NCBI GenBank assembly: GCA_012295275.1
Contig: CM022674.1
Span: 7,192,001-7,256,000 of the forward strand
Source: Chrysomallon squamiferum
Lineage: Eukaryota; Animalia; Mollusca
DNA: 64,000 nt
Reading direction: 5' to 3'
The number at the start of each line of letters is the position of its first letter. Position 1 is the stretch's first letter. Made by a program: the position numbers and the translations under genes. A model generated the notes under the pieces. That model saw nothing but the letters and a program-made list of their open reading frames with translations, was not told where the DNA came from and did no database searches. Shown here piece after piece: positions 32,399 to 38,400 of the stretch.

Positions 32399-32720
32399 AT
32401 GTCTGTAAAATCAGGTTATCGTTCGACGGAATCTATAGATATTAATTTTGACCTTGACAGAGAAGCAAATTCCAAAAGTGGTAGTCATAAATATTTACGA
32501 TTGGAAGCGTTACAAATAGATTCTGAAAAAACAACAGAAAGTTCTGAACTGTTGCCACACAAAAAATTTCTACATCGACTTTTTACGTTTTTCTGTGGAT
32601 ATAAACAGAATCATACTTCGGAAGATTCCGGATATAAACGTCGTCGACTCGGAACATTTGCCGGAGTTTTTGCACCCATTGCTTTGAGCCAGTTTGGAAA
32701 TAATTTATTTTTACGTCTAG
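32399..32720 (+). CDS. SLC12A9: SLC12A9 alternative first coding exon 1a (N-terminus plus TM1)
   Basis: ATG at 32399, open for 322 nt, ending [35 protein letters not shown]. The phase-1 donor is compatible with the acceptor at 40854, and the exon is homologous to exon 1b. Confidence 0.8.
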
Positions 32721-33244
32721 GTGAGAAGAGAATATTTTAGAAGTTATCTTTCATAATGTTAATATTTAGCATATACTACAAGTTCTATTACTTCTACTTT
32801 TACTACTGCTACTACTACTACTACTACTGCTACCACTACTTCTACTACTGTTACTTCCATGTCTGTTACTACTACTACTACTGTTACTAAAACCTCTGAT
32901 ACTTCTAGTACTTCTATCACTAATGCTACAACTGCTACCACTATTACTAGTGATACTGCTACTACTATTGTTGCTTATATAATTGCTCCTATTACTACAT
33001 ATATTTGTAATACAAAACTAGTATCATCGTTTTTGGACTATTACGTCTAATTTTACTATTACTGCTTATTTTACTGTTACTACTGCTACTATTATTATAA
33101 TACATGTCCTTCTACTGTTACTAACATCAAAGCAAGGGAAATACAATTACTAAAACCAGAATTACTATTTCTGCAGTTTGTATTACTCATGTTGCTACTT
33201 TCCAACATTAACAAGAGACCGTAATATCTGGGGTGCGGGGGGTA

Positions 33245-33385
33245 CTGTGATTTCTCCCCACTGATTATGGGAGAGTTCATATAAAAGGTAACTTTTTGCT
33301 AACAGAGTAGCCCATCGTGTGTAGCAGTGTCCGCGGCGGGTTTTCTCTGACATTAACAACTAGAACCTTAATCATATATCATATA
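33245..33385 (+). mobile_element. Degenerate SINE central-domain fragment (Nin/Deu-domain-like)
   Basis: TGGGAGAGTTCATATAAAAGGTAACTTTTTGCTAACAGAGTAGCCCAT...GCGGGTTTTCTCT resembles a recalled gastropod SINE core (GGGATGGTGCATATAAAAGATCCCTTGCTGCTAA...GAGTAGCCCAT...GCGGGTTTCCTCT). Confidence 0.5.
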
Positions 33386-35475
33386 TCACTTGTATCTGAT
33401 TCTCTCGTCCAGGAGTCACTTGAAGAGGGCGCCACTTACGATAACTGTAAAAGATGGGTATTAGTTAGATCTTAGGTCAGAAGCAAAGTTGCCAGTAGAT
33501 ACATCCCTCGTTGTGGTTACATGGACTTTTTTTTTTTTTTTTATTTTTTTGTTGTTGCTTGTTTTTCTTATTGCTAATAATACAGTTATTATTATTATTA
33601 TTATTATTATTATTATTATTATTATTATTATTATTATTATTGTCAGTGTTGTTGTTATTTTCGTCGTCGTCGTCGTTGTTATTAATATTATTAATATTCT
33701 TCCTCTTATTATTATCACTGTTGTTTTTTGCTGTTATCATTATTCCACCCACCACGACAACTACATATACAATACTGTTATAAACTCTTGCAAACTTCTA
33801 ACAAACTACTACTACCATTACTGCCATCATTCTTTCACAGCCAAATAACGATGTAGCAAATGAACACTGGATGTTGGAAATGCCATCCAAAGATGTTTAT
33901 TTCCACATGAAATAGCGTGTGCATGTGCCCTGATGTTAATGAAACACCTAATAATAGTTAGGTTACACTTATTACCTGTATTTACCTTTAATTATATTAA
34001 CGATATCCAATATAATGTATGTTTCATTTATCATCGCCTGTAACGACGTCGTCGCGCGACAGGTGGTCGCTATCGAGTCCTGGTATCAGCTTTTTCATGG
34101 TCACATTTCATTAACGTGTTATTAAAAAGCACGTCCGTAAATATTGTTACTATATATACATGCTCTGATAGGTTCGTATGCACATATTCGAGCACACATA
34201 AACACACACACAAACAACCTCATCCAAATCGGACATACACAGGTGTGGATATATGTATGTATGATTATAAAATCTCAATTTATATATTTATTATACAGTT
34301 TTACATAAAAGCAAGTGTTTTTTTATTTCGTTTGTTTGAAGGTTTTCTTTTTTTTTTTTTTTTTTTTTTTTTTTTTCTTCTTTTTTTTTTTGTGTGTGTG
34401 TGTTTTTAATTTTTTAACTATAATTTTATTTTTTATTTATTATTATTATTTTTTTTTACAGTGTACAGGTGTGTATACAACTGTTGTGCGAACGTGACTG
34501 GTATTTATTATTATAAAACAAATTTAGTAACAGAGGTCACGATTCTGGTAAAACGTGAAACTTTTTTTTCTTTTATATAAATTTGCATGCTTTACTTTAT
34601 CAATAACAAGATAAAAACCTTTCATATGTAATTTTATTAAGAAGAGTGTACGCCCTGTTCTAAACTCCATCTGCACGTATATCCATTTATTTATTTGGTT
34701 TATTTATAATGATGATGATAACGATAAAAATATTTATTTATTTATTTATAATAATAATAATAATAATAATAATAATAATAATAATAATAATAAGTATAAT
34801 TTTTATTATCTTTATTATTATTAGTAGTAGTAGTATTAGTATTATTATTATACTTATTATCTTCATCATAATCACTGTTTATTAATAATATATATAATTT
34901 TATCGTGCTCTCTGTAAATATTCATTCATTCACTTTTCTCACACTGTGCTATTTATAGTTTAAAGTACTACGACAACAACTTTTAAATACCAGCAGTATT
35001 ATTAGCTTGTCACGGCAGAGAGGAACTTAATATAATAATTGCAGCAGTCATTGTAAACATTAAACCAAGCGTAAATTACAGTTTACGTGTACAGTTTTCT
35101 CTCTAACACTCAACTGTTTATTTACGTTTTCAGTCTGAACCTTTATCAGCTTTATAAAGCATATTTAGATTATAGATCCATATGACAGACGTGCCTTTCT
35201 GCATATATATGAATAAGAGTTCATGTCCTTAATGTAAATAATGACAGTGGGCTGATCGGTCCAATAATGTAAACAAAAGCACGTGTATTAGCTGACTCTA
35301 ACAAGCATGCGCAGTGACTGATGTAATATATTTAGTCTTCCGGCGGAAGGCTATCTCGAACAGCTGGTCAGAACTAGGAAATGATTTCATATTTCTGGCG
35401 ATATCGACAGAGCTTCTCTCTTCCACCTCACACAGAAATTGTTACCCTGGTGATGAAAGTGTCATAAATTCGGCG

Positions 35476-38400
35476 ATGGAAAGGACAAGCGACAAGGCGC
35501 CGATTCTTAGCAACTCAAGAACGTCTAACATTTCACAGTACGGCACATCCCCGTCTTATGACAGAGATTCAGAAACAGCCAGCGCCGAATCATTGCATAC
35601 AATTTCTGGCAGTCCTCGCATCCATAGTCCTTCAGTGTGGAAACTAACACGCGAACTGAGCCATGGAGGATCGGATCCAGAACACCGAGGTCACAGAGAC
35701 AACCCAAACCGTGGCAGACGAACTCTGGGGACGTTTTCCGGAGTTTTTTGTCCGATTGCGCTTTCCATGTTCAGCACTTTGTTGTTTTTACGAGGAGGTA
35801 CAATGTTTTTATTGTTCAAACCTTCGATAATGTTTTCAGTTTTTAAATATATCATTCCTCAATAATTTACTTTTTTCCCTTTCAGTCTTTACTTAACCTT
35901 GGTACTACTAATGTAAAATGTTTCTTTGTATATATACATACACTTTTCCACTTGGGCACACCCAAACTCACTTTCTCTGTTGATAGTATTAAAGGCATAA
36001 TAGTGACTGAAAGAGTAAGAGTCACAAATGAAAAAAACAAAACAAATCACAATGCTTTCTAAAAACACAGGTTGAAATAAAAATCGGTAAGAGTTAACAC
36101 ACACACACACACACTCACACAAAAACAATTAACTCATATTTATGTTCATGCATACAGAAATATTTAAATACCTATAGAAACATTTAAACAGATAAACTGT
36201 ATATATTACAAACATGCACGCACACACACACACACACACACACACACACACACAATTAACTCATATTTATGTTCATGCATACAGAAATATTTAAATACCT
36301 ATAGAAACATTTAAACAGATAAACTGTATATTATGAATGTGCGTGCACACACACACACACATGCAAACAAACACACACACATAAATATACACTGTTTATA
36401 TAAAAACTCATTTCACAATTAATCCAGTAAATTCAGTAAATCTGGACAATGAATACATGCACTCACACACACACACACACACACACACACACACACACAC
36501 ACACACACACACATTTACTGATGTGACACAGAAAAGTGGAATAGCAGTTACAAACACTGACATTGAATTTGAAAATATAAAAACAAAATTTATATCTAAA
36601 TTGGTGTGTGTCTACATGTGTATGTGTGTGTTTTATAGTACACATATGTGTATATTTTATGTATACATGTATTTACATAGGTGTTGTCAGTTTTTATAAA
36701 CTGTACCAAACAGCTGGACAGAGTTTTTCAAACATGTGTTACTAATGACAGAATTTTAGAAAGTCAATTTGGTTTTGTGTCAACTAGGGTGAACAGCCTC
36801 CCAACAGATAATTGATGTCAAAAAATCTAGTTGTCATGAGTCATGATCACGTTCCCTGCTTTCAATAGCATGACTCAACACAAATAAAAGTTAAAAACGT
36901 TTCTTCGCATGATATAAATAGTACAAACAGGTCAAGTTTCAGCAGTAAGTATATCTGCGTGTGTGTGTGTGTGTGTGTGTGTGTGTTTATCAAACTAACA
37001 TTTGCCAAATAAGTGTATATTTTGAAGTAGCCATCCATGAATTCTCACAAAAAAAAAAGAAAACATGATGATAAATAATAAAAATAATAAATAAATAAAT
37101 AAAACCATTTAAATTGCAATTATAATAATAAAAAAAAAAAAAAAAGGTAAATGAAAATAGCCTAAAATAAATTAAAAAAAAAAAATAACTATAAAGAAGA
37201 AAAACTTGAATGAAATGACATTAATGACTAGAAATGTTGATAATGATGATAGCAATAATAACAATATTAATAATAAAAGTAGAAAAAAAAATATATAGCA
37301 ATAATAATAAAAATAATAAATACTCTAAAATCCGAAATTAATGCATGTATAAAATAAAGTGACATAACAGCACTACACGAAATGCATGTATTGATTAATT
37401 CAGTAACTGTAAAAAAACAAAAAAAAATTTAAAATTTATTTTGAAACTAGTGTAATACTTTATGATTTAATTGTGTTATAGCTCTAACATTTTCAGTTAC
37501 AGAAACCACAATATATAATAAAATGTTTTATTGTTGTTGAATGCTAAGCAGGCTTTGCATTGTGCCCCTCCCCCCAAAAAAAAAAAAAAAAAAAAAATGA
37601 AAAAAATAAAAAACCAAATGGATTGCTTGTAGAGGTTCTCAGTACCCATAACATTCAAGCTGTCTGGGTTTCACTTATTCAGAGGAATCTTGTATTAACT
37701 CACTGCTTACTCATTATCAGTTCCAACTCCATGCCAGACTGAACCACCTCATAATTATACAGGAGTGTAAAACTATATATAAAAATACTTGTAACCAAGT
37801 ACAGTAATACCTCAGTTATTGAATTCCTTTCTCCAACAATTCAGTTCTCGAACGTATTGTTTGAAAAAAAAAAGGTTTCAGTTGTTGAATGTAAGCTAGG
37901 TTCTCAGGCTGAAGGCAGCCAGGGTAGTGTGTTCAGAAGGAAAGCAGTGGGTGGGTGGGTTACAAAGTTATGTGAACAAAATCAAACACAGAACAAACGT
38001 TTTCAGTGACAACATCACCTCTTTCTTTAGAAACATTTCAAAACACAGGCAGAAAGAGAGCAAGTTAGACAGGTTTTTTTTTAGTGAAAATGAAGTTCAG
38101 TGACTTTCAAGCAGGTTGTGATAGGGTAAAGGGACAATAAAGATTAAAAAAAAACTGAGAATGAAAGTTATCTGACACGTTTGTGACTCACGTTTTGAGT
38201 GATAACATCCTTCCTCCTCTGACTTTTCCTCACCCCCCCTTTCATTTACACCATCTGCTCTTCTTATCTGTTTATTGTGTTGTAGTTTTTGTGAGTGCAA
38301 GTAAATATTATCATGCTGGGTTAAATAAGCAACATGTGTTATTTAAAATGCTTTTTTAATGTGTAATATTTGGAGTTCTCGATCAAATTGTTCCAAAATA

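Follow-up and report, generated by a model that had tools for sequence, protein, structure and literature searches.

We describe here a 64,000-nucleotide (nt) stretch of the genome of the mollusc Chrysomallon squamiferum (assembly GCA_012295275.1, contig CM022674.1, positions 7,192,001 to 7,256,000; 'the window'), and in particular a gene within it that we assign to SLC12A9, one of the SLC12 cation-chloride cotransporters. As the preliminary description of the sequence proposed, this gene has two paralogous first coding exons, 1a and 1b, ahead of one common body. They exchange the N-terminal tail of the protein and its first transmembrane helix (TM1). Alternative exons of this kind recur as annotated isoform pairs in 17 species from three phyla. 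The reading that we favour, and consider likely to be right, is that promoter choice selects between the two: 1b gives the main, canonical form and 1a a rare form with predicted altered ion affinity or coupling, and possibly a different location. The features of the gene, in window coordinates, are these:

32399..32720, + strand: exon 1a, coding part; 107 amino acids (aa) + 1 nt; N-terminal tail and Q-type TM1; phase-1 donor
34959..34978, + strand: weak acceptor, taken by the single exon-1a RNA contig; probably cryptic
35347..35475, + strand: exon 1b, 5' untranslated part; RNA contigs in 4/4 runs begin at 35347-35356, which is no proof of a transcription start site
35476..35797, + strand: exon 1b, coding part; 107 aa + 1 nt; N-terminal tail and M-type TM1; phase-1 donor
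40854..40988, + strand: exon 2, first common exon; joints 35797-40854 and 40988-41882 in 4/4 RNA runs
41882..45975, + strand: span of common exons 3-10; open frame, GT-AG ends
41882-42016, 42522-42667, 43356-43533, 44139-44246, + strand: exons 3-6; RNA contigs cover exons 3-5 and the joint into exon 6
44749-44860, 45107-45264, 45399-45481, 45851-45975, + strand: exons 7-10, placed by frame and by identity to Gigantopelta
46334..47681, + strand: last exon; C-terminal SLC12 domain and stop codon

When the sequence was re-examined, each first exon proved, as originally described, to have an ATG, 322 coding nt and a GT donor in phase 1. Either one, joined to the ten downstream exons (40854-47681), yields an open frame of 949 aa, of which the common body, from exon 2 onward, makes up 842. 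The ends of the two exons are homologous and the tails are not, again as first reported: 19 of the last 27 residues are identical, and 8 of the first 80. At the DNA level, compared without gaps, identity is 52-59% over the last 92 nt and 24-33% upstream of that. Exon 1a encodes the TM1 residues S97-Q98-F99-G100-N101-N102 and R106 (Q-type), and exon 1b the canonical residues S97-M98-F99-S100-T101-L102 and R106 (M-type). Lying in tandem, homologous, in the same phase and both in frame with one common acceptor, the pair has the makeup of a tandem duplicated N-terminal exon. The swap replaces the whole N-terminal tail as well as TM1, a point that the preliminary description missed. No third TM1-coding segment was found in the 64-kb window by tblastn with the N-termini of eight relatives; only 1a and 1b matched. 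The exons are of equal length in Gigantopelta too (104/104 aa), and of unequal length in other species (e.g. 100/118 aa in Haliotis), and so the identical 322-nt length is probably incidental. The last exon is GC-rich (49%) and not depleted in CpG (0.86), in contrast to the neighbouring introns.

By its sequence, the gene product is an SLC12 cation-chloride cotransporter: the last exon matches KCC3 (E 6e-27), and the Gigantopelta orthologues score above cut-off for PF00324 and PF03522 (the AA_permease membrane domain and the SLC12 C-terminal domain). Going by the annotation of its nearest relatives, it belongs to the SLC12A9 subfamily. Among the matches listed, member 9 is the only SLC12 member named, and the common body is identical to Gigantopelta aegis SLC12A9 at 721 of 842 residues. 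Exon 3 (41882-42016) encodes a tyrosine in TM3 that aligns with the K+-site tyrosine of KCC3 and is present in 105 of 120 homologues. Human SLC12A9 is described in a preprint as being without a tyrosine required for K+ transport (bioRxiv 10.1101/2023.05.22.541801); we assume that this is the TM3 residue aligned with KCC3. Because the window protein keeps the tyrosine that human SLC12A9 reportedly lacks, the cation of invertebrate SLC12A9 may not be NH4+ alone, and K+ may possibly be carried too.

The exon pair is not peculiar to this species. Gigantopelta aegis has orthologous exons with an identical boundary, annotated as isoforms X1 (XP_041377712.1) and X2 (XP_041377713.1), which are identical in their last 842 aa and differ solely ahead of the exon 1/2 boundary. 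Exon 1a is 59% identical to X2 over all 107 aa, and exon 1b is 70% identical to X1. Between the two species, TM1 matches at 27/28 (1a) and 28/28 (1b) residues, and the tails at 38/74 and 45/75, i.e. 51-60%. Further afield, 21 clusters were picked by hand for lophotrochozoan names or isoform labels, three decapod clusters included. Same-species isoform pairs that split at the exon 1/2 boundary occur in 15 of these, although, with clusters chosen by hand, 15/21 is not a frequency. Among gastropods, the pair is found in Gigantopelta, two Haliotis, two Patella, Babylonia, Littorina, Biomphalaria, Physella and Bradybaena; among bivalves, in Saccostrea, Mercenaria and Mya; and elsewhere in Octopus bimaculoides, the nemerteans Lineus and Tubulanus, and the brachiopod Lingula. 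The scallop and Elysia clusters hold both TM1 types, in records of differing origin. One TM1 type only was found in the three decapod clusters and in the Mytilus cluster (22 members, of which 15 were listed and 11 of these inspected). The pairs are automatic RefSeq gene models, and the transcript support behind them is not visible. Independently of these models, a full-length Q-type protein of 969 aa (P0020) lies on a 3672-nt Logan contig, which must be a spliced transcript because it is too short for introns. The GenBank model of Biomphalaria (P0159), which joins both TM1 halves in one protein, is probably a prediction error.

A search of the whole library with exon 1a returned 18 matches. 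Fifteen are 1a-like frames in which similarity ends at the exon 1/2 boundary, one combines a Q-type TM1 with a different tail, and two (P0212 and P0225) are unrelated. In a tree of 32 columns, from which the near-copies Haliotis cracherodii and Patella caerulea were omitted, a branch (support 92/87, not starred) separates the 13 Q-type exons from the rest, and the addition of the three bivalve alternative exons to this group is not rejected (p-AU, from the approximately unbiased test, 0.156). When the TM1 region of Lingula served as query, Lingula itself and Tubulanus were the only finds among 13 candidates; this search is weak, and uninformative on annelids and other phyla. The two-isoform architecture very probably holds for the group as a whole, and we infer that the first exon was duplicated once, before the split of molluscs, nemerteans and brachiopods.

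Expression in Chrysomallon itself was followed in four RNA runs from one study, as assembled contigs aligned to 31960-43550. Contigs of this kind lose rare forms, and missing cover is not the same as a missing isoform. The joint 35797-40854 is present in all four runs, at contig depths of 75-162. Exon 1b behaves as the main first exon, since every run makes this joint and the contigs start at 35347-35356. A close-up of 31965-32775 took in three of the four RNA runs, and another run, its kind not recorded, that extends across the intron. Here exon 1a is covered in one of the three RNA runs, by one contig of depth 3 (32392-32720) that departs from the genome exactly at the predicted donor, 32720; the donor is therefore used. 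The contig terminates in what we take to be adapter sequence. Exon 1a is transcribed, then, and spliced at a low level in this species. Depth over exon 1a that appeared for runs X1 and X3 in the wide view was gone in the close-up (0 contigs), and is not counted as expression.

CpG is not limited to the two regions originally assigned one to each exon. The observed/expected ratio for CpG is 0.8-1.5 continuously from 28001 through exon 1b; it is 0.95 between exons 1a and 1b, and not until the intron past 1b does it drop, to 0.23. In invertebrates, gene-body methylation tracks germ-line transcription. If that is so here, depletion that begins past 1b and not past 1a agrees with a constitutive start at 1b and a restricted start at 1a. 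Inspection for promoter motifs gave nothing firm.

The link between TM1 and the ion sites, also made in the preliminary description, is borne out by alignment. The window TM1 aligns to KCC3 without gaps. TM1 of KCC4 contributes N131 and I132 to the K+ site, and G134, V135 and I136 to Cl- site 1 (PMC11994965), and NKCC1 and KCC2 share this layout (PMC7889885). The 1a/1b differences Q/M, G/S, N/T and N/L align with KCC4 I132, G134, V135 and I136; the two forms are thus predicted to differ at one K+-site position and at all three positions of Cl- site 1. Across 18 species, the I132 position of the canonical exon is Met in 17, its G134 position is Ser in 18 and its I136 position is hydrophobic in 18. 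Upstream exons have Gln at the I132 position in 15 of 18 (Lineus counted) and Asn at the I136 position in 12 of 18, and all 18 retain the gate Arg and the TM1 scaffold. Exon 1a has Gly at Cl- site 1, as in KCC and NKCC. Mutants of this site transport at 77-83% of wild type in KCC4 (mock 38%; PMC11994965) and at 46-87% in KCC2 (mock 34%; PMC10518353). Isoform X2 of Lineus longissimus (P0040) has an upstream-type TM1 with a one-residue deletion in the unwound ion-site stretch, which shifts the Gln. Bradybaena similaris (P0014, P0015 and P0189) has Gln in both TM1 versions, and a second protein with an identical TM1 motif is listed separately. Structure prediction added nothing: AlphaFold2 models of the two Gigantopelta isoforms, with mean predicted local distance difference test scores of 56 and 54 and TM1 mostly below 50, are too poor to use, and the differing TM1 helix breaks in them are not counted as evidence. 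The 107-aa exons alone, compared with solved structures, found nothing relevant; matches to procollagen-enhancer proteins are due to chance.

The tails differ as well. Dileucine and tyrosine motifs at residues 4-14 direct human SLC12A9 to lysosomes, according to the preprint (bioRxiv 10.1101/2023.05.22.541801). A dileucine-like motif is present in both window tails, and, by patterns that were defined after inspecting the sequences, in 17/18 canonical versus 10/18 upstream tails; an RSLS-like motif is present in 16/18 and 0/18, respectively. An amphipathic stretch ahead of TM1 (moment of at least 0.5) occurs in 13/16 upstream-type versus 6/16 canonical tails, a difference too blurred to serve as support.

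How might the two exons be used? On the promoter-choice reading, an upstream promoter that we infer to be separate, and whose activity would be confined to a few tissues or stages, would produce 1a transcripts. Their donor at 32720 would skip exon 1b, which lacks a strong acceptor, and join 40854. A downstream promoter would produce the common 1b form, presumably a housekeeping and probably lysosomal transporter. Both proteins would have TM2-TM12 and the C-terminal domain in common, and the polar Q/G/N/N version would reshape the unwound middle of TM1, retuning Cl- site 1 and the adjacent cation site. The parts of this reading are not equally secure. We consider it very likely that 1a is spliced productively to exon 2 in this species. 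That a real difference in ion affinity or coupling follows TM1 is, from the residues involved, somewhat more probable than its opposite, and altered affinities and rates are predicted to be more likely than an altered substrate identity. A change of substrate together with a change of location is a weaker candidate than a change of affinity, and less likely than not. So is the broadest version, in which a promoter switch that predates the split of molluscs, nemerteans and brachiopods would exchange the ion-coordinating helix of SLC12A9. A lysosomal housekeeping protein would then become a tissue-specific transporter that prefers another cation or couples to chloride differently, perhaps at the cell surface, where it would handle ammonium or salt.

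Several observations weigh against the promoter-choice reading, in addition to the hand-picked clusters and automatic models already mentioned. The grouping of Q-type exons could reflect convergence, on so few columns. The preliminary description expected exon 1a to be intact and conserved in relatives, as it is, and to be joined to exon 2 in transcripts; no 32720-40854 joint is among those listed for the four RNA runs, in contigs that lose rare forms. In the sole contig on exon 1a, the 20 letters after the donor match only 34959-34978, behind an AG, and this splice places a stop codon one residue past TM1. KCC4 I132S is without significant effect (PMC11994965), and the contacts of TM1 to ions are made via backbone atoms. 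Gln at the I132 position, present in 24 of 120 representatives, is also found in single-TM1 proteins of decapod crustaceans and in Bradybaena's canonical exon, and so is no mark of a special form; and three bivalve alternative exons retain the M-type motif.

Some of these points suit other explanations better. Both isoforms could be real, and the switch could serve the tail and the promoter—sorting, regulation or tissue expression—with the TM1 changes tolerated or compensatory and transport chemistry about the same. The lysosomal motifs of the human tail (bioRxiv 10.1101/2023.05.22.541801), the tail motifs that differ by exon type, the backbone nature of the ion contacts and the bivalves with an M-type TM1 in each of two exons all speak for this. 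Even so, we think it improbable: the polar TM1 is near-invariant between the window and Gigantopelta despite a drifting tail, it recurs in octopus, nemerteans and Lingula, and same-size side-chain changes at three of these positions reduce KCC activity. Alternatively, exon 1a might be mainly regulatory or unproductive in this species, its splice to 34959 giving a 108-residue truncated product or a substrate for decay, and so damping or bypassing the gene. The sole RNA contig on 1a does take this route, and ten ATGs lie between 34959 and the start codon of 1b. It is, however, a single contig of depth 3 with presumed adapter at its end, and the acceptor is poor: its matrix score of -2.3 does not place it among the best 12 of 102 AG sites. 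The TM1 of 1a, moreover, is kept residue for residue, which would be needless for a non-coding role, and relatives have full-length upstream-type proteins; we regard this explanation as very unlikely. Least likely of all is regulation through mixed dimers, in which the upstream isoform, as an altered or transport-dead subunit, would control the canonical one. Cation-chloride cotransporters are dimeric (PMC7889885), transport by KCC2 is almost abolished by a Glu at the I136-equivalent position (PMC10518353), where 1a is polar, and the ion-site deletion in Lineus would suit such a role. Direct evidence for mixed dimers is nil, though, and both the gate Arg and scaffold common to all upstream-type exons and the KCC/NKCC Gly that 1a restores at Cl- site 1 argue against it.

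The SLC12 family provides other cases with which promoter choice between 1a and 1b can be compared. The A/B/F cassettes of NKCC2 (SLC12A1) exon 4 are likewise paralogous and swap a membrane segment, and the variants differ in apparent ion affinity (PMC7818487). They differ in being internal and in covering TM2 and loop 1, placed outside the ion-binding sites (PMC7818487); the SLC12A9 swap is of the first exon, takes the whole tail and includes residues at predicted ion sites. KCC2a/KCC2b and KCC3a/KCC3b likewise arise from alternative first exons (PMC13565721, PMC4301019), but these swap N-terminal tails, and the SLC12A9 pair exchanges TM1 too. More generally, tandem duplicated exon substitutions are likewise homologous alternative terminal exons, old, and enriched in ion transport genes; in human, 40 of 236 events are N-terminal (PMC9741552). 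Such regions usually avoid or conserve ligand-binding residues (PMC9741552), whereas the changes in SLC12A9 cluster on predicted ion-site positions. Human SLC12A9, of the same subfamily by source annotation, is a lysosomal NH4+/Cl- cotransporter (bioRxiv 10.1101/2023.05.22.541801). In the open-access literature we found no paper describing these SLC12A9 isoforms; the lophotrochozoan RefSeq pairs are automatic gene models. The class—tandem-duplicated N-terminal exons—is known, then, and automatic annotation already includes the isoforms, but none of the SLC12 cases compared is a swap of first exons that takes in the ion-site helix.

The window has other features too. Methyltransferase exons with a Bin3 domain (Pfam matches), which we presume to be MEPCE-like, and PI3K-related kinase exons, whose motifs we take to resemble mTOR, lie on either side of SLC12A9, and two repeat arrays accompany them:

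6536-10617, + strand: methyltransferase exons
14200-26300: satellite array with a unit of ~1.03 kb, each unit with about three 58-base subrepeats and a CA microsatellite; strand skew strong and constant
58768-61493, - strand: PI3K-related kinase exons, converging on SLC12A9
61700-64000: long tandem array of a degenerate ~100-base unit, inside the kinase gene

SLC12A9 was an orphan until the 2023 preprint, and there is still debate over what the first chloride site does in cation-chloride cotransporters. An isoform pair with 842 residues in common offers a natural two-state test of the TM1 ion-site positions. If transport by the two forms differs, the choice of isoform would amount to rewriting a substrate site, a rare situation and here one maintained in three animal phyla; the pair would also be a candidate for a part in how molluscs handle ammonium or salt.

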